Shown: one piece after another, positions 4,200 to 51,387 of the stretch | How the letters are laid out: each line of letters begins with the position of its first letter | Position numbering within the stretch: position 1 is the stretch's first letter | Source of the DNA: a virus | DNA length: 64,000 nucleotides | IMG/VR virus record: IMGVR_UViG_3300036790_000386 | Location: 1-64,000 of that record | Reading direction: 5' to 3' (one strand) | The notes under the pieces: model-generated | The model's input: the letters and a program-made list of their open reading frames with translations, nothing else | The model's database searches: none | Told to the model about the DNA's origin: nothing | Translations under genes and position numbers: made by a program

Positions 4200-4395
4200 A
4201 AAAATCAGAGTTGTAGCAACCTACCAAGAGCAATCCACTTTCAATACAGACCTCACGTGGAACTATAGATTGCTTTCAGATGGTGTCTGTGAAGTTTGGT
4301 CACAGGCATGCAGAAGGTGGTTCCATTATAATTTCACGCGCGCGTTGCGCGCCTCGCCGCCTTCGGCGGCTCGCACAAACACAAAGAAAAAATAA
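4171..4395 (+). CDS. hypothetical protein whose 3' end is formed by repeat copy 1
   Basis: In-frame ATG at 4171 within ORF 4135..4395; the tail NFTRALRASPPSAARTNTKKK is read through the repeat. Confidence 0.4.
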   Translation: MDQLSQLQNEKIRVVATYQEQSTFNTDLTWNYRLLSDGVCEVWSQACRRWFHYNFTRALRASPPSAARTNTKKK

Positions 4396-4416
4396 AACTT
4401 TATTACACCAGGCCCC
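4326..4416 (+). repeat. twin-hairpin dispersed element, copy 1
   Basis: TTCAC-GCGCGC-gtt-GCGCGC-CTC-GCCGCC-ttc-GGCGGC-TCGCACAAACACAAA-15 nt-TATTACACCAGGCCCC. Confidence 0.97.
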
Positions 4417-4419
4417 AAC

Positions 4420-4614
4420 ATGTCAAATAAGCGAAGGTTAGCTTTAAATAACGGCGATCGTGTCAAACACACAAAAACTAAAGCTGTCGGCACTTACACT
4501 GGAATGAAATCTTTTGTCATCGGTGAAAAGCGCAGCAATCGTTGGTGGATAGTGTGGGACGGTGAAGTTCAACTAAGGTCTCATACTCAAGATGAACTCG
4601 AACGAATCAAGTGA
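4420..4614 (+). CDS. small SH3/KOW-like basic protein
   Basis: GDRVKH...VGT...WIVWDG pattern. Confidence 0.5.
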   Translation: MSNKRRLALNNGDRVKHTKTKAVGTYTGMKSFVIGEKRSNRWWIVWDGEVQLRSHTQDELERIK

Positions 4615-5415: not shown

Positions 5416-5500
5416 GGGCCTGGTGTAATAAATCTTAATTCTTCTTTGTGTTTGTGCGAGCCGCCGAAGGCGGCGAGGCGCGCAACGCGCGCGGGAAACT
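5416..5500 (-). repeat. twin-hairpin dispersed element, copy 2 (inverted)
   Basis: Reverse complement is identical over 85 bp to 51302..51386. Confidence 0.97.
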
Positions 5501-5514
5501 AAAAGGTAAATCAA

Positions 5515-7278: not shown

Positions 7279-8775
7279 ATGAAAGTGATTAGTGAAATTT
7301 TTCTATTGGAGCCAACTTTAGTTATAGTTGAAGATCGTCAACGTTCAGTTTTGAATAAAGAGTCTTTGGCTGAATTAAAAGATAGTATTGCACTTTATGG
7401 TGTTTTGTCTCCTATCGTAGTTCGACAATCTGTTAATGGTCCGGTTTTGATTTTTGGTTTGCATAGATTAACAGCTTGTCTTGAGCTTGGTATTTCTGTT
7501 CCTGCTTTTTATTTTGAATCTCTTTCTATTATTGATGCTAAGGTTTTAGAATTAACTGAAAATATTAAGCGCTCTGATTTAAGTTGGATAGATAAAGTTA
7601 AAGCGATTGGCGAAATTCATGCTCTGCATAAAGCTGAAGATAAGAATTGGAACAATACAGCTACTGCAAAAGAGCTAAGCCTGAGTAACACATATATTGG
7701 ACAGGTATTGACTGTATACCCGTTTTTAGGGTCGAAAAAGCTAGAAGCGGCCACTAGCATCACCCATGCATTTAACATCCTTTCTCGTTTAGCTGACAGG
7801 CAGGCTGCGGCAATTGTAGGCGAGATGATAGGGGTATCAAATGATTTCTTTAAAGAAGAGACTGAACGGCCAATATCAATAGAAACTGACAGTGCAGGAA
7901 GTGAGAAATCTACAGAAGTATTATCACTCGCTACTGGAATTTCAAAAAATGATTTTATTGGAGTTCAAGTTTCGAGTAGTAATCGGTCTGTTAAAGTTAA
8001 TGTGTCTAAGGCTGTTTCAACTAAAAATGAAGAACGCAAGTCTGTGCCTGTTCCGCATACTAAGGGTGCTATTTTAAATGAAAGTTTTTTAGAATGGGCG
8101 ACAACATATAGTGGCAGTAAATTTACGCTTGTTCATTGTGACTTTCCTTATGGAGTTTTCCATGGGGCTAATGCTGCTGGCGGGTTTGGTTCTACTTTCG
8201 ATGGTACTGCTAACAGTCAAGAAGCTTTGTATGAGAACACTCAAAAGATTTATTACGATTTACTGGACTCTTTTGTTGTTAATTTTGATAAGTTTGCTTC
8301 TTACAGTTGTCATGTTATCTTTTGGTTTTCGATGAATTTTTATGAAGAAACTAAAGAGAAATTGGAATCAATTGGATTGAGAGTTCAACCTCATCCGTTT
8401 ATTTGGCACAAGAGTGATTCAAAAGGCGTTTCACCTTGGCCTCATGGGCCTAAAAAAATTTATGATACAGCTTTTATTTGCTCGCGCGGTGACAGACAAA
8501 TGATTAAGCAAGGTACTAATGCTTATTCTGGTCCCACGCCTACTAATAAGATTCACCCATCTGAAAAATCAGAAGCTATGTTGAAGTATTTTTTATCAAG
8601 TTACATTGATGAAACAACAACGGTATTTGATCCAACGTGTGGATCAGGAGTTGCACTTCGTGCGGCTGAAGATTTAGGTGCTAAAGAAATGTTAGGGTTA
8701 GAGATTAATTCTGAATATGCTGTTGCTGCAAATCATGCGATGTTGAAAGCAAGGGCATTAAGAAAATTGAAATGA
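7279..8775 (+). CDS. ParB-like N-terminal domain fused to N6A/N4C DNA methyltransferase
   Basis: LKDSIALYGVLSPIVVR..GLHRLTA..ENIKRSDL, then CDFPYG, HPSEKS, FDPTCGSG. Confidence 0.85.
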   Translation: MKVISEIFLLEPTLVIVEDRQRSVLNKESLAELKDSIALYGVLSPIVVRQSVNGPVLIFGLHRLTACLELGISVPAFYFESLSIIDAKVLELTENIKRSDLSWIDKVKAIGEIHALHKAEDKNWNNTATAKELSLSNTYIGQVLTVYPFLGSKKLEAATSITHAFNILSRLADRQAAAIVGEMIGVSNDFFKEETERPISIETDSAGSEKSTEVLSLATGISKNDFIGVQVSSSNRSVKVNVSKAVSTKNEERKSVPVPHTKGAILNESFLEWATTYSGSKFTLVHCDFPYGVFHGANAAGGFGSTFDGTANSQEALYENTQKIYYDLLDSFVVNFDKFASYSCHVIFWFSMNFYEETKEKLESIGLRVQPHPFIWHKSDSKGVSPWPHGPKKIYDTAFICSRGDRQMIKQGTNAYSGPTPTNKIHPSEKSEAMLKYFLSSYIDETTTVFDPTCGSGVALRAAEDLGAKEMLGLEINSEYAVAANHAMLKARALRKLK

Positions 8776-19723: not shown

Positions 19724-20023
19724 ATGTCTGAGACTCCGATGAACCTTAAACGGAACGTTTTGCCAATTCCAGGTGGGCTTAAAGCCGTCTATAATTTTAC
19801 TGATGGCACCTTTCTTGGCGAAATTGTTTGTATTACTGTTGGACCAACCGGCCCGCAAAATTTACCTGCTTTATTGCTGGATTTTGCAAATGCACTCAAT
19901 GACGCAGCAAAAGCAGCAAAAGAAGCTAATGATGCAAAAATTGCTAAAGCTAATGAAGGAATGGCAGCTACAGCTGTTTCACTTGATGCTCAATCTGAGC
20001 CAGAAAGTAACTCTGGACCATAA
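19724..20023 (+). CDS. hypothetical protein
   Basis: 99 aa ORF with Ala/Lys-rich tail. Confidence 0.55.
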   Translation: MSETPMNLKRNVLPIPGGLKAVYNFTDGTFLGEIVCITVGPTGPQNLPALLLDFANALNDAAKAAKEANDAKIAKANEGMAATAVSLDAQSEPESNSGP

Positions 20024-20057
20024 TTGCTGGACCATAATTGCTGGACAATAATTGCTG
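20013..20057. repeat. tandem 14-bp repeat x3
   Basis: CTGGACCATAATTG, CTGGACCATAATTG, CTGGACAATAATTG, CTG. Confidence 0.9.
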
Positions 20058-20082: not shown

Positions 20083-20670
20083 ATGACTAAAGCTATAACT
20101 GAAGATCAAAAATCCCAGTTAAAAGAACTTTGGCTAAAACATACCCCAAAAACTGTAATTGCTAAAAAGCTTAATATGTCTGTTCAAGCAATTTCAACTT
20201 GGGGCGAGTTGCAAAATTTACCTCCATATGTAAAGCGTAAAAATACTCCAGTCTGTGCTAAAGATTGGCCTGAAAGTTTTAAAGAAAAATTTCGTAAACT
20301 TTACTCTAATAAAGATAATACTTATCAAGACATAATTAAAGCTTTAAACGATAAACAGTGCTGCAATTCACGACATATTCGTCTAGCGCTTCATTATTTG
20401 AACATTACACCACAATCTCTTAATAAGGTAGATAGAGATGCCAGAAGGAATCAAAAAGAGCTTCAAGAAATTCAAAAAAGAGCTAAAACTTCGCAAGAAA
20501 AAAAAATTGAAGTGCCGTCTGACGCTCATAATTGGGACACACAAGGAAGATGTCGAATTTGCCTTAAGTGCCAAGAAAAGCAATATAAATCAACCCGTCA
20601 TTGTATCCAAGGTGGACATCTTTTAAGCTGGCTTCCAGCAATATCCCCAACATGCAGCAAAAAGAAATAA
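20083..20670 (+). CDS. HTH DNA-binding protein with C-terminal Cys motif
   Basis: LKELWL..IAKKLNMSVQAIS HTH; second W-x-E repeat; CxxC. Confidence 0.6.
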   Translation: MTKAITEDQKSQLKELWLKHTPKTVIAKKLNMSVQAISTWGELQNLPPYVKRKNTPVCAKDWPESFKEKFRKLYSNKDNTYQDIIKALNDKQCCNSRHIRLALHYLNITPQSLNKVDRDARRNQKELQEIQKRAKTSQEKKIEVPSDAHNWDTQGRCRICLKCQEKQYKSTRHCIQGGHLLSWLPAISPTCSKKK

Positions 20671-21322: not shown

Positions 21323-21751
21323 GTGCGCAGAAGTGAAGAAATTGTCAGTAGATACAAAGAATTAAGTAAAAATGAACATGAAGATTCATTTGGAATTCAA
21401 CGGACAAATTTACTAAAATTTTTACCATTTAGTACAATTAAAACATATCTTCGTCCAGATTTTCCAGAAGAAGCTCGTGATATGTGGGACTGGAAGCCAG
21501 TAACAGAAGAAACTGTTAAACAAATCATTTTTGACTATATGCCATTTGCTTGGAAAAAAGCCAACCAACGGCGCAGTGTTCCTGCAATACGCTCATTGGA
21601 GCATATGAAAATCTGGTTATGGTTGCTTGAAGATACTCTTGCAGATCAACTGGAATATTATCAGTTTTACGGCAAAGACAAACTAGAAATGATCTGCAAC
21701 AAGTTCAACTGGTGCTGGGAAAAGTGGGACAATGGTGAAAGATTTAACTGA
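21323..21751 (+). CDS. hypothetical phage protein
   Basis: AGGAG RBS, GTG start; YMPFAWKKA..RS..H..W.W..YGK. Confidence 0.65.
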   Translation: MRRSEEIVSRYKELSKNEHEDSFGIQRTNLLKFLPFSTIKTYLRPDFPEEARDMWDWKPVTEETVKQIIFDYMPFAWKKANQRRSVPAIRSLEHMKIWLWLLEDTLADQLEYYQFYGKDKLEMICNKFNWCWEKWDNGERFN

Positions 21752-22194
21752 TGCACATAATTGTAGACATTGATGGTACGCTTGCAGATGGCACTCATCG
21801 CCAGCATCTAATTAAAGGTGGCCCTGATAACATAAATAAATGGAAAGATTATCAAGCTCTATCTCACCTTGATGCAGTTATTGAGCCAATTGCTCATGTA
21901 GTTAGACAGCTTTATTGTGCAAAGAATACTATATTAATTTGCACCGGCCGCCAACAGTTTGAACGAGCCGCAACGGTCAAGTGGCTTGGAGAGAACTCTA
22001 TACCATTCCATGAAATATTTATGCGCACTTCTAACGATTTCAGACACGATGATATTATTAAAGAAGAATTACTGGATTACATGCTTACGCAAGGATTTTT
22101 GCCTCAGCTTGTTTTCGAGGATCGTCAGTGTTGTGTTGATCTATGGAGACGCAGAGGATTAGTTTGTTGTCAGGTAGCTCCAGGTAATTTTTAA
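21751..22194 (+). CDS. HAD phosphatase (PNKP 3'-phosphatase-like)
   Basis: DIDGTL, CTGR, MR..DFRHDDIIKEE, FEDR. Confidence 0.88.
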   Translation: MHIIVDIDGTLADGTHRQHLIKGGPDNINKWKDYQALSHLDAVIEPIAHVVRQLYCAKNTILICTGRQQFERAATVKWLGENSIPFHEIFMRTSNDFRHDDIIKEELLDYMLTQGFLPQLVFEDRQCCVDLWRRRGLVCCQVAPGNF

Positions 22195-22236: not shown

Positions 22237-22659
22237 ATGAGAATCGAAGAAAAACTCTTTTATCTTGAAGAAATGATAAAAGAAATAGGTATAACAATTA
22301 ATTCAAATTGGCCAGATATTTCTCGTGAATTTCCACAGTTAAAGTATAGAACCAAAGAACAAGGTGTTTGGTATTATGGCTACAGATGCGCTATGCGTGA
22401 TATATTTATGTATTTAATTGAAGAAACTGAAGAAGAAAAAGAAAAATCTGAAAAAGATTGTGCGCAGCTTGAAGATCTTGTAACTGAAAATGAAAGACTC
22501 AGAACAGCTTTGCTAACACTTTGGACTAATGATACTATAACTTTTGGATTTGGACATGAACAAGAAACTGCTATAATTCCAGACGCAATTAAAAATTTCG
22601 CAGGAAGTATTTTATATCCAAGCCAAAATAAAATTTCACTTAAGGAGCCAAAAAAATAA
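22237..22659 (+). CDS. hypothetical protein
   Basis: 140 aa with a coiled-coil segment. Confidence 0.55.
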   Translation: MRIEEKLFYLEEMIKEIGITINSNWPDISREFPQLKYRTKEQGVWYYGYRCAMRDIFMYLIEETEEEKEKSEKDCAQLEDLVTENERLRTALLTLWTNDTITFGFGHEQETAIIPDAIKNFAGSILYPSQNKISLKEPKK

Positions 22660-22928
22660 TGGCTACATATGATGAAGCGAAAGAAGCAGTTAGTGAAGGC
22701 TTTATCGCTAAGCGCGAAGCTTGGGAAGATGATCAGGCGATTGTTTTAGCTTTATTTGGAAATAAATTTGGCTTCCCTGTCTATATTAACGATGGGCGCT
22801 TGCATGATCAAACAGGCTTCATTAAGCGTTATTATGCGAATTCTGATGATAAAGCTGCTACGGATTGGGTGTGGCAAAAGGCACAATATTCGCTTGAAGA
22901 TACAGTTTCACCAAATCTATTAAACTAA
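22659..22928 (+). CDS. DUF2829 / Tad2-like protein
   Basis: N-terminal Y-x-EA-x-EA-x3-G-x3-KR-x-x-W and C-terminal Y-x-AN-x-DD-x-x-ATDW resemble the DUF2829 end motifs. Confidence 0.5.
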   Translation: MATYDEAKEAVSEGFIAKREAWEDDQAIVLALFGNKFGFPVYINDGRLHDQTGFIKRYYANSDDKAATDWVWQKAQYSLEDTVSPNLLN

Positions 22929-22977: not shown

Positions 22978-23892
22978 GTGAAAAAAAATATCGAACAAGC
23001 CACCTTGATGATCCAAGCTTTTGAAAGCGTTGGATGCAACTATTTTACCCTAGTAGCAGAAAAAAATAATGAAACAGTATTTATTCGCCGTGCTGTTGAT
23101 GCAGAATTTATCAAGCTTAATCTCAGAAACGACCTTGAACATGCTGCTAGGGTATCTTGTAATCTGCACCTTCGACCCTATTCTCGATTATATTATTTGG
23201 TGCAGCTTGACGATATTCGCATTTTTCCTTTTTGTGTTTGTGCGAGCCCGCTGGAGGCGGGCGAGGCGACCGCAGGTCGCGTGAATTCACCATTTATCAT
23301 TACAGAAACAAGTTCAAAAAGTTATCAATGTTGGTTAGCTTTAAATAAAAAGTTTACAGTAGACGAAACTAAGATAATTAAAAAGATTTATCAGGCGGAT
23401 TTGGGCGCTACGGGAAGCTGCCGACTGGCAGGTTCAACCAATTTTAAGGAAAAATATTCGCCAAATTTTCCAACCGTTAGAGTTGTTTTTAGTTCTTTAT
23501 ATACTCTAGCGGATTATGAAGAATTATCTACTCAGATAATTCAATTTAATGCGCGGCAAGCCGCGCCTCGGCGGCTTTCAGCCGCCTCGCACAAACACAA
23601 AAAAGAATTTAACAATATTACACCAGGCCCCAAACTAACTAGAACTCTTGCATGGCCTTTTTATTCAAAAGCTATTCAACAGAACGATGGTAGAAGAGAT
23701 GGTTGGGGTCCAGATCGAAGTAGGGCTGATTTTGCTTGGGCAATTATGGCACTGAAATTTGGGCACTCAGTTGAAGAAGTTGCAGCAAAGCTTCAACAGA
23801 TTAGTGATAAGGCAAGAGAGAAATCGGAATACGAAGCGGAGTTGTATGCCTTTAATACGGCACTGCGTGCTTCTGAGGTTTATAATAGGTGA
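22978..23892 (+). CDS. RepB'-type (RSF1010-like AEP) DNA primase with C-terminal helix bundle
   Basis: NLHLRP, VQLDD, ETSSKSYQCW, AD.GATGSCRLAGSTNFK.KY; C-terminal DRSRADFAWA..A..G...EEVAAKL...S.KA...YA..T. Confidence 0.82.
   Translation: MKKNIEQATLMIQAFESVGCNYFTLVAEKNNETVFIRRAVDAEFIKLNLRNDLEHAARVSCNLHLRPYSRLYYLVQLDDIRIFPFCVCASPLEAGEATAGRVNSPFIITETSSKSYQCWLALNKKFTVDETKIIKKIYQADLGATGSCRLAGSTNFKEKYSPNFPTVRVVFSSLYTLADYEELSTQIIQFNARQAAPRRLSAASHKHKKEFNNITPGPKLTRTLAWPFYSKAIQQNDGRRDGWGPDRSRADFAWAIMALKFGHSVEEVAAKLQQISDKAREKSEYEAELYAFNTALRASEVYNR
23231..23287 (-). repeat. twin-hairpin element, copy 3 (inverted, inside primase gene, compensatory stems, no distal box)
   Basis: Reverse complement: TTCAC-GCGACC-tgc-GGTCGC-CTC-GCCCGC-ctcca-GCGGGC-TCGCACAAACACAAA. 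Confidence 0.93.
23551..23631 (+). repeat. twin-hairpin element, copy 4 (inside primase gene, compensatory stems)
   Basis: GCGCGG-caag-CCGCGC-CTC-GGCGGCT-ttc-AGCCGCC-TCGCACAAACACAAA-14 nt-TATTACACCAGGCCCC. Confidence 0.95.
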
Positions 23893-23903
23893 AAATAAAA
23901 GAA

Positions 23904-24449
23904 TTATGGCAATAATAGGTTTGACTCGATTCTGTCAATAACAGAATGCGCCCAAGCAATATCGTCTTCGTCAATTTCGCCAAAATTACCTCCAAATGCT
24001 GATGCAGTCATCGGAAGTTCTTCACCGATTTCTGCTGCTTGCCAGATTACGTCATGCGATAGGTTTGATATACTTACAGCGGTGTGATTGGAGCAAATTG
24101 CATTAATTACCGTATCAACCAAGCTAATTTGCTCAGCTGAAAATATAGAAATATCAGGCTTCTTCAACGAGAAGAATTGCGTTTGGTTGTACACGTAGGT
24201 TGGGATCTGTCGTTCAACTAAAGCCCCTGACTTCACAAGGCGTGCGCGGGAAGCCATAATATCTCTGGGGGTCGGTCCAAATTGGCGCTTGATATACGTC
24301 GCTCCAGTTATAGAACTCCCGTATTCAGCGAAGGCAAACATGTCAGAATACCACAAAACCTTATTAAGTTTTGTAACTCCAAGTTTGTTAGGATTATCGC
24401 ACCGCGCACATATGTAGTGCGTGAGTGTGTCTAATTTCGCATGTTCCAC
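23904..24449 (-). CDS. Panacea (SocA/DUF4065) antitoxin-domain protein
   Basis: LGVTKLNKVLWYSD..YGSSITGATY....GP.P; ISNLSH..W. Confidence 0.85.
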   Translation of the reverse strand: MEHAKLDTLTHYICARCDNPNKLGVTKLNKVLWYSDMFAFAEYGSSITGATYIKRQFGPTPRDIMASRARLVKSGALVERQIPTYVYNQTQFFSLKKPDISIFSAEQISLVDTVINAICSNHTAVSISNLSHDVIWQAAEIGEELPMTASAFGGNFGEIDEDDIAWAHSVIDRIESNLLLP

Positions 24450-50202: not shown

Positions 50203-51299
50203 TAGGAACCACCACCATTTATTCCAGAATATGGTTGAACTTGCTGATAATTTTTTGGATTAGTTGAACCACCAACAGGAACAGCAGAAATAACAACTAA
50301 ATCAGAATACCAATCATTTCCGCGAGAGTCGCCTCGATGCTCTACAACAAGAATAATATAAGTTCCATCAGCAGAAACATCCATAATGTAGTCAGAAATT
50401 CCAGGACCAGGAAAAATTGGCTCTTGAATTCCTTGAATGCTATTGCCTTGCGCAGCTAATGTTTGATTAACTATTGTATTGTTAATTATAACTGGCCGTC
50501 GAATTCCATAAGAAGGATTTAAAAGTGTTCTAACTTCCAATCCATCAGATGTTGTTACTGGAAACCCAACCATACCAGTTAAAGAATTAATAATAAAAGC
50601 TGTTGTATCTGAAATCGATACATTAGATGGAACTAAAACAAACTGTCCATTCTGTATAGACCACTCCATTGGCTGGCCACCAACGTATACAGACTTAGCT
50701 GTATTATCTAAAATTGGAGCAGACAGCCCATATTGAACAGTTGGTCGAGGTTGTATAGGAAGCACAGGGGCAGCAAGAACTTGACTACTAGGAACAGTTG
50801 TATCCCAAGGAGTTAAAGACTGAGCTAATGCTTTAATTCTTCCTTGTGGTGTATTTGCAGATCCTATAAGTGTGCTTGATATAGTTGCATTATTGTAGGG
50901 TCTATCACCATCAGCTGCATCAATTTCTAAAAAGCTATCAACAGCCGTTTCGCCTCCAAATTTAATTTGACGAATTGTTCCATCGAAAATAACACCAAAA
51001 CGGCCATTTAGATAACCAGCAGAAAGTGTAACTCTACGATACTGATTTTTAATCATAGTTACTAAATTATTACTAACATTATAAATTTTAATACTACAAT
51101 AATTTGGAATACTTGCAGTTGTTTGATGTACTTCAAAGACAATATGAAGCTGTTCTTCACCTGGAGCATCAGACCCAGCAGAAATTTGTGTTGCTACATT
51201 AGCTCCAGCCGCTGAATCATAAACAACTACTGACCATTTTCGTAACCATTGGTCTGATACAGTTGAAGTTGATGTTGGAGTTGAATATGCTTGTGACAT
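50202..51299 (-). CDS. baseplate hub protein
   Basis: WLRK; I.IYN; LSAGY...G.IFDG.I; DGD; WSIQNG; H.GDSRG.DWY. Confidence 0.8.
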   Translation of the reverse strand: MSQAYSTPTSTSTVSDQWLRKWSVVVYDSAAGANVATQISAGSDAPGEEQLHIVFEVHQTTASIPNYCSIKIYNVSNNLVTMIKNQYRRVTLSAGYLNGRFGVIFDGTIRQIKFGGETAVDSFLEIDAADGDRPYNNATISSTLIGSANTPQGRIKALAQSLTPWDTTVPSSQVLAAPVLPIQPRPTVQYGLSAPILDNTAKSVYVGGQPMEWSIQNGQFVLVPSNVSISDTTAFIINSLTGMVGFPVTTSDGLEVRTLLNPSYGIRRPVIINNTIVNQTLAAQGNSIQGIQEPIFPGPGISDYIMDVSADGTYIILVVEHRGDSRGNDWYSDLVVISAVPVGGSTNPKNYQQVQPYSGINGGGS

Positions 51300-51301
51300 T
51301 C

Positions 51302-51387
51302 AGTTTCCCGCGCGCGTTGCGCGCCTCGCCGCCTTCGGCGGCTCGCACAAACACAAAGAAGAATTAAGATTTATTACACCAGGCCCC
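51302..51387 (+). repeat. twin-hairpin dispersed element, copy 6
   Basis: Fills almost the whole 51300..51390 intergenic gap; identical to copy 2 over 85 bp. Confidence 0.97.

Follow-up and report, generated by a model that had tools for sequence, protein, structure and literature searches.

In-frame copies of a repeated hairpin element in a phage gene for a RepB′-type primase and their possible use as single-strand priming signals

Introduction

To our knowledge, RepB′-type primases are known only from IncQ-like plasmids. The enzymes of these plasmids need two long hairpin sites, and both strands are replicated continuously. The present work concerns a phage gene for an enzyme of this type and a structured DNA element, approximately 100 nt in length, that lies in frame inside this gene in two inverted copies and recurs in the gaps between other genes of the same genome. 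Both are found in the first 64 kb, referred to below as the window, of the 101,927-bp virus record IMGVR_UViG_3300036790_000386. An original prediction, made from the sequence of the window alone, had proposed that the two copies within the primase gene form a bidirectional replication origin, and its individual claims are followed up here by computational analysis.

The closest described system is that of plasmid RSF1010. RepB′ binds six single-stranded nucleotides 5′ of the hairpin of ssiA, a single-strand initiation (ssi) site, together with the first base pair of this hairpin, and the primer is started 3′ of the hairpin (PMC8567376). Together with a second site, ssiB, on the complementary strand, ssiA forms an inverted repeat (PMC8567376). 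GAA/GNNA mini-hairpins are exceptionally stable DNA structures, which occur at the priming site of phage G4, in the RSF1010 ssiA hairpin (CCGAAGG), and in the N4 hairpin promoters; in addition, two consecutive mini-hairpins are poorly bound by the binding protein for single-stranded DNA (SSB) (PMC13037366).

Two element copies inside the primase gene

The strand on which the parts of the element are read in order is called strand F. On this strand, the element is composed of a box (GGGGCCTGGTG), an AT-rich spacer of ~20 nt, a 16-mer (TTTGTGTTTGTGCGAG), hairpin A, a GAG linker, hairpin B, and a tail. The last G of the 16-mer opens hairpin A, the GAG linker is invariant, and the tail is A-rich (GTGAAATTATAA or GGGAAACT). 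The primase gene and the two copies that it contains, copies 3 and 4 of the family, are the following.

22978..23892, plus strand: gene for a RepB′-type archaeo-eukaryotic primase (AEP), GTG start, 304 aa, with a catalytic domain, a linker, and a C-terminal helix bundle
23225..23290, plus strand: copy 3, in frame, residues ~83-103 (FPFCVCASPLEAGEATAGRVNS); 84.7 bits
23548..23633, minus strand: copy 4, full length, in frame, residues ~191-218 (ARQAAPRRLSAASHKHKKEFNNITPGP); 92.4 bits

The open reading frame (ORF) 22978..23892 was confirmed to hold both of the peptides quoted in the original prediction, with the element copies inverted and in frame. Copy 3 comprises the 16-mer (23231-23246), hairpin A (23246-23262), the GAG linker, hairpin B (23266-23280), and an altered 3′ tail, GTGAAT, and has no 5′ box. 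The parts of copy 4 are the box (23621-23631), the 16-mer (23586-23601), hairpin A (23570-23586), and hairpin B (23551-23566). The 16-mer is exact (16/16) on the plus strand in copy 3 and on the minus strand in copy 4, and it has six exact occurrences in the window, compared to 0.97 expected by chance even at three mismatches. The arms of the resulting inverted repeat, 23225-23268 and 23564-23607, are 84% complementary and separated by 295 nt. The 16-mers face outward, as had been described, whereas the spacing of about 260 bp has to be corrected, since the inner hairpin ends are 270 nt apart.

All four stems within the gene fold as hairpins of 6-7 bp on either strand and the ORF is uninterrupted, in line with the earlier statement that both copies still pair and leave the frame open. 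The two copies had also been regarded as the most diverged of the family, which is true within the window but not genome-wide, because a copy at 84237 scores lower (80 bits, compared to 85 and 92). The hairpin parts stand out in base composition: their GC content is 83% in copy 3 and 81% in copy 4, compared to 37.5% in the rest of the primase gene, and their GC at third codon positions (GC3) is 67-83%, compared to 28% in the rest of the gene. This jump in GC and GC3, the compensated stems described below, and the identity of the 16-mer to that of the intergenic copies bear out the proposal of a non-protein constraint on the intragenic DNA. Collectively, we can state with high confidence that these are real copies of a structured DNA element, in frame and retained, in loops of a RepB′-type primase.

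Identity of the primase

Taken alone, the window protein matches PF22448, the RepB′ C-terminal domain, at 19.2 bits (E 0.0011), which is under the cut-off of 26.1, and falls short of the Pfam cut-off for the N-terminal domain PF16793. A single-sequence phmmer comparison with RSF1010 RepB′ (PDB code: 3H20) gives an E value of 0.008. A profile of 31 sequences, made up of the window protein and its relatives from protein collections and 80 metagenome loci, matches 3H20 with an E value of 1.2e-18, covers both domains, and extends the alignment to RepB′ residue 289; 24 of the 31 members match PF16793. The AlphaFold model of the primase has a predicted local distance difference test (pLDDT) score of 85.6 and shows helices at residues 229-303, and the top Foldseek matches of this model are 3H20 (E 4e-12, full length) and 3H25 (TMt 0.70). 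Moreover, residues D78, D79, D141, and R149 are invariant in the 31 sequences and are aligned to D77, D78, D134, and R145 of RepB′, which are its catalytic residues (PMC8567376). The profile match, the fold match, and the presence of the catalytic residues uphold the assignment made in the original prediction. As judged from the sequence and the structural model, the ORF 22978..23892 encodes a RepB′-type AEP, for which priming activity is predicted.

Relatives of the primase were not found in GenBank phages by tblastn or in IMG/VR, and close relatives were not found in GTDB genomes. The JGI metagenomes provided 80 primase loci, all of them 27-35% identical to the window protein and without inserts. 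Three distant RepB′-like loci from soil metagenomes (L081:8480-9152, L069:1527-2498, and L068:8205-8305) show inverted-repeat pairs with arms of 27-47 nt that are 39-918 nt apart and lie 0.3-1.5 kb upstream of the primase gene. They may represent ssi pairs, although the observation is anecdotal.

Element-encoded inserts and the closest relatives

The 31-sequence alignment shows that approximately 17 residues after QLDD (…FPFCVCASPLEAGEATAG…) are missing from 29 of the 31 sequences. Copy 3 is located here, in the loop after the catalytic QLDD strand, and copy 4 in the length-variable linker before the helix bundle, the linker of the window protein being the longest in the alignment. The sole low-confidence parts of the model (pLDDT <50) are residues 86-98 and 205-222, both of which are element-encoded.

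Two primases with nearly equal identity to the window protein differ in this respect. The first (P0002; 47-49% identical) has both inserts, which are 5-6 residues shorter; the residues that derive from the 16-mer and the box (IFPFCV; H-x-x-K-K; TPG) are conserved in it, whereas those that derive from the hairpins are not. The second (P0005; 46-47% identical) has neither insert and is the closest homolog in which they are missing. The three primases form a fully supported clade, the inner order of which is left undecided by the tree. The simplest reading is a single gain of the inserts in the ancestor of the window phage and P0002; the inserts may instead have been lost in P0005, with which the tree is also compatible. 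The alignment, the comparison with P0005, and the pLDDT values agree that both segments are insertions in variable loops, as an alignment of homologs had been expected to reveal. Two inverted copies of the element are inserted into structurally tolerant parts of the primase, and both stay open in frame. The further suggestion that primase and origin make up one portable module is not supported, because the insert-free P0005 shows the primase existing without the elements; in addition, no other virus or genome in the collections searched has the primase together with the element.

The element family and the covariation of its stems

A covariance model (R1) identified exactly ten copies in the 101,927-bp genome, which replaces the earlier count of six. 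The other copies in the window are listed below.

4315..4420, minus strand: copy 1, intergenic, opposed to the flanking plus-strand genes; 117.9 bits
5411..5514, plus strand: copy 2, intergenic, between MazG-like and Sak4-like genes, co-oriented; 113.3 bits
36491..36594, minus strand: copy 5, intergenic, in the late (minus) arm and in the orientation of its genes; 112.3 bits
51288..51391, minus strand: copy 6, intergenic, just upstream of the baseplate-hub gene; 109.6 bits

All eight copies besides the intragenic pair occupy intergenic gaps and are mostly co-oriented with the genes. The 16-mer is perfect (16/16) in nine of the ten copies and has one mismatch in the tenth, while the hairpins are identical in five copies and differ in the other five.

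In the model-fitted alignment, 98.3% of 120 cells are paired, and double-sided changes are found in 9 of the 12 stem pairs (24 cells), with no one-sided or wobble change. None of 500 shuffles reached any of the covariation measures, and slid registers came nowhere near them either; these figures are somewhat inflated, the alignment having been fitted to the structure, but the stems are also legible directly. The substitutions in the stems are compensatory and therefore indicate selection on the folded single strand, not on the peptide. The loops are strand-asymmetric as well. G-N(-N)-A loops (GAA, GCA, or GTAA, closed by C:G or T:A) account for 12 of the 20 loops on strand F and for 0 of the 20 on the other strand, the loops of copy 10 having been read by eye. 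At least one such loop is present in every copy. The heptamer CCGAAGG occurs in 7 of the 10 copies, and its place is taken by CCGCAGG in copy 3 and by CTGAAAG in copy 4. The 16-mer and the closing G:C pair are invariant while the stem bodies vary.

The copies appear to exchange sequence. Copies 2 and 6, which are inverted and 46 kb apart, are 99% identical over 88 nt including the spacer (5416-5503 and 51299-51386) though the copy-6 site is ancient, which suggests gene conversion between copies. The orientation of the copies was also considered and was not used as evidence: a one-origin model explains 8 of the 10 orientations, transcription explains 7 of the 10, and a two-origin/two-terminus model explains 10 of the 10, the last with four sign changes, which is chance-like.

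Conservation and distribution of the element

The element of copy 6 is present at the orthologous site in two relatives (G001 and G002), in which it consists of the box, a core-like motif, and a C-GTA-G hairpin; this version is missed by covariance model R1 and was recognised by eye. The flanking genes of the relatives have diverged considerably, with identities of 59-67% for the hub (best segments) and 61% for the upstream gene. Because the orthologous site has been kept at ~60% identity of the flanking proteins, the element appears to be functional rather than junk. On the basis of the stem covariation, the strand-asymmetric loops, and this intergenic copy conserved in relatives, a DNA-level function of the element is likely.

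Searches of IMG/VR (2.9 million viral contigs) with a degenerate box-plus-core pattern returned only the relative G001, and the 23 single matches of the exact 16-mer in the same collection are all devoid of hairpins and look like chance. The degenerate pattern has 35 matches in GTDB genomes. Two of these, in a gammaproteobacterial metagenome-assembled genome (G004), are integrase N-terminal coding sequences (…GLGAFPVVSVDEA…) and were rejected as chance, because the sequences represent eight paralogous integrase N-termini. The genes concerned (L166-L173) are eight integrase paralogs with near-identical Arm-type N-termini, scattered round a 4.5-Mb chromosome. Outside this lineage, the element was found in none of the collections searched (IMG/VR and GTDB genomes). 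Relatives of the Sak4-like gene and of PolA were likewise not found in IMG/VR.

The elements as candidate priming signals

Largely by analogy with RSF1010, we propose that the elements serve as signals for the initiation (priming) of DNA synthesis on single strands and that their most plausible reader is the RepB′-type primase itself; we give this reading a probability of roughly 0.4. A priming signal on single-stranded DNA (ssDNA) is ranked first because of the RepB′-like logic of the element, the lack of wobble pairs, and the nature of the gene that hosts it. The strand-specific GAA/GNNA loops, with the ssiA heptamer CCGAAGG among them, lend the ssi-like idea some indirect support. In such a mechanism, the folded molecule would be the DNA strand F. 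On the 5′ side of the hairpin, the primase would recognise the single-stranded 16-mer and the closing G:C pair, both of them invariant, and would ignore the hairpin body, which could then be free to covary. The primer would be started 3′ of the hairpins, and the GAA/GNNA mini-hairpins could keep the site free of SSB. If the polarity of RepB′ holds on strand F, copy 3 would give leftward and copy 4 rightward synthesis, and the intragenic pair would be a divergent start site, one of several in the genome and not a unique origin.

A number of observations weigh against this proposal. First of all, 7 of the 10 copies are co-oriented with transcription and stand directly before start codons, an arrangement that an RNA-level role fits equally well. 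The link between the element and the RepB′-type enzyme is itself drawn by analogy, and the element could instead be read by the DnaG/TOPRIM-type primase of the phage (12816..14006). Only 24 changed cells, in a structure-fitted alignment, underlie the lack of wobble pairs, and gene conversion, which homogenises the copies, could help explain the perfect 16-mers without selection. In addition, the primase is not present on the fragments of the relatives G001-G003. The surroundings of the gene also fail to resemble a plasmid origin: no iterons or tandem repeats were found within 1.5 kb (22-25.5 kb), so that there are no RSF1010-type oriV features, and the cumulative GC skew, which had been suggested as a check, has no inflection at 23.4 kb; the skew is noisy and tracks the gene strand and the Gly-rich fibre genes.

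The bidirectional origin of the original prediction finds no support here, in that there are no iterons, that the skew has no inflection, and that the pair is not unique, eight more copies being present; an origin of this kind embedded in the primase gene now seems doubtful. It is similarly only a tentative idea that the phage replicates at least partly by a plasmid-style RepB′ mechanism with ten dispersed ssDNA signals, two of which would lie in the gene of the primase itself. The tandem repeat nearest to the primase gene is a 14-nt unit (CTGGACCATAATTG) repeated 3.2 times (96% match) at 20013-20057, where it separates gene 19724..20023 from gene 20083..20670. No other iteron-like repeat of this sort lies close to the replication genes.

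Alternative explanations

The explanation that survives best next to the priming signal is a cassette acting at the level of RNA or transcription, for example a non-canonical promoter with a structured leader, or a site for antitermination, processing, or translation control. The two intragenic copies would then be such units that came to lie in the final gene of the early arm, one of them in sense orientation, while the other could drive or structure an antisense RNA. The seven co-oriented copies fit this well, as they take up the gap between the genes, with their ends 2-30 nt ahead of the start codon, and the late arm is partitioned by the copies into terminase-portal, head, baseplate, and fibre blocks. 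The conservation of the copy-6 site in relatives could be read in the same way. By inspection, the box of six copies contains an extended -10-like string, TGgTGTAAT; however, this string is not conserved in the version of the relatives (TGGGTGGGAT), and copy 3 does without the box altogether. Among the four copies scanned, no sigma-70-type promoter is shared, only copy 1 having a chance-level match that overlaps the box, and a terminator with a U tract was not called on either strand, whereas ordinary U-tract terminators are present elsewhere in the phage. Three copies are antisense to all surrounding genes and have no ORF to serve. An Rfam search with the element gave no match, and G:U pairs number 0 in 120 cells. 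Furthermore, C:G-closed GAA triloops belong to the DNA mini-hairpin type and are not a favoured RNA loop (PMC13037366). Taken together, the evidence makes an RNA-level cassette rather unlikely. An N4-like hairpin promoter was also rejected, since no RNA polymerase, either large or T7-like, was seen among the ORFs examined.

A different possibility is that the element is an ssDNA signal for another protein, such as the TOPRIM primase-helicase, the Sak4-like annealase, the exonuclease, or an unrecognised hairpin-binding nuclease, and that its location in the RepB′-type gene is incidental. The same DNA-level evidence that supports a priming signal applies here, and the phage encodes a DnaG-type primase, a Sak4-like protein, and an exonuclease; mini-hairpins are used by G4-type priming sites too (PMC13037366). 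Nevertheless, such a signal gives no reason for two inverted copies being kept inside the RepB′-type gene in two lineages, and it is RepB′ that represents the family known to need long hairpin-containing recognition sites (PMC8567376). We consider this explanation improbable.

Least credible of all is a selfish or recombination-spread repeat, of the kind of miniature inverted-repeat transposable elements (MITE), repetitive extragenic palindromes (REP), or Rickettsia palindromic elements (RPE), with the intragenic copies as tolerated loop passengers without a role for the primase: the lack of both inserts in P0005 and ~30 distant homologs, the near-identity of five copies, and the disorder of both insert sites in the model would suit it, but there are no terminal inverted repeats by inspection (the box and the A-rich tail are not complementary), no flanking direct duplications by eye in 50-70 nt around each copy, for which no formal search was made, and no transposase or RAYT-like gene among the ORFs scanned, in a scan that was not exhaustive, while the element is confined to one lineage in the 2.9 million viral contigs and missing from GTDB genomes, a site is conserved in relatives at ~60% protein identity, and the inserts are common to a primase that is <50% identical and yet combine perfect 16-mers with compensated stems.

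Genome and gene neighbourhood

The ends of the 101,927-bp record carry a terminal repeat of 127 bp, which is explained most simply as the assembler overlap of a circular assembly. A simple ORF map made for this analysis shows two arms. The plus-strand arm contains early and replication genes and extends from ~81.3 kb through the end of the record to 23.9 kb, and the minus-strand arm contains structural genes and extends from 81 kb down to 23.9 kb. Terminase, portal, prohead protease, and baseplate-hub protein are annotated in the structural arm; the replication-type annotations are a split PolA, the DnaG/TOPRIM-type primase mentioned above, the Sak4-like annealase, and the exonuclease. The portal is at most 50% identical to that of any cultured phage.

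The stop of the primase gene (23892) and that of the minus-strand gene 23904..24449 are separated by only 11 nt. Because these tail-to-tail stops are so close, the transcription arms can be said to converge at the end of the primase gene, as was originally noted. The minus-strand neighbour (23904-24449) has a SocA/Panacea antitoxin domain (E 2.4e-12), and no terminator-like site was found between it and the primase gene. Two further matches come from the region directly upstream of the primase gene, at window positions 22659-22928 and 21751-22194: one is weak and Tad2-like (Thoeris anti-defence; E 0.0017, below cut-off), and the other is to a PNKP-type HAD phosphatase (E 3.4e-30).

Other features of the genome were noted as well. 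A ParB-like domain and a DNA methyltransferase are joined in a single 498-aa fusion at 7279-8775 of the window. The large terminase (L044:8449-11517; genome 72449..75517, minus strand) has 1022 aa, and its N-terminal ~270-420 residues also match the helicase-loader/primase-type P-loop families phrog_50 and phrog_510; the protein may be a fusion or may contain an inserted domain or an intein. Near the point of arm divergence, at ~78.5-79.8 kb of the genome (L044:14507-15431), there is a cluster of strong GC hairpins, several with U tracts and therefore terminator-like, which has no relation to the element family.

Implications and comparison with known systems

Should the priming-signal proposal be correct, a tailed phage with a RepB′-type enzyme and genome-wide hairpin signals would begin DNA synthesis in a manner that is new for a large phage. 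The primase gene would be both the enzyme and one of its start sites, a self-contained primase-plus-ssi unit, and with the further sites, the enzyme could begin continuous strands at many points of the 102-kb genome. The gene would also be a clear example of a single stretch of DNA under selection in two forms, as protein and as folded ssDNA. Even without any functional claim, the locus offers a clean natural example of compensatory DNA-hairpin evolution inside a coding region.

Among known systems, RSF1010 RepB′ and its ssi sites are the most similar, as the enzyme belongs to the same family and the site-like elements are placed on complementary strands as an inverted repeat. The likeness to ssiA may extend to the layout and the heptamer (CCGAAGG in the canonical copies), with a GAA-capped GC hairpin, an invariant 5′ single-stranded flank, and an invariant closing pair. 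The differences are also considerable: the phage element has twin hairpins, whereas ssiA has one hairpin of 9-10 bp; the phage has ten copies over 102 kb, compared to two sites in one oriV of the plasmid; neither iterons nor RepC/RepA partners were seen near the phage primase; and the phage sites lie inside the primase ORF.

The last point brings to mind the ori of lambda, which is located inside gene O: the part of this initiator gene that encodes the linker also holds the sites to which the initiator binds. Copy 4 is proposed to be comparable in that a cis replication signal would lie in frame in the flexible linker of the protein that uses it. The lambda sites, however, are double-stranded iterons for an initiator and not hairpins for a primase, and the lambda origin is unique, whereas the phage element also occurs eight times outside the gene. 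RPE are short palindromic repeats found both in intergenic regions and in frame within ORFs, where they encode surface-exposed protein parts. The phage repeats resemble RPE and MITE in being both intergenic and in frame inside a gene, but differ from them in that no terminal inverted repeats were seen by inspection and the copy number is tiny, as well as in the strong covariation of the stems, the strand specificity of the loops, and the conservation of a site across diverged relatives. Repeated intergenic cassettes upstream of genes are also known as the promoter-stem-loop (PeSL) cassettes of T4-type phages and the start-associated sequences of mycobacteriophages. These are likewise stem-loop repeats in phage genomes, situated just before genes and co-oriented with them. 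The element described here, by contrast, has no recognisable promoter, is antisense to the surrounding genes in three copies, is found inside an ORF in two copies, and has loops of the DNA mini-hairpin type. The element combines features of several known kinds, namely ssi signals, cis sites inside replication genes, and in-frame palindromic inserts.

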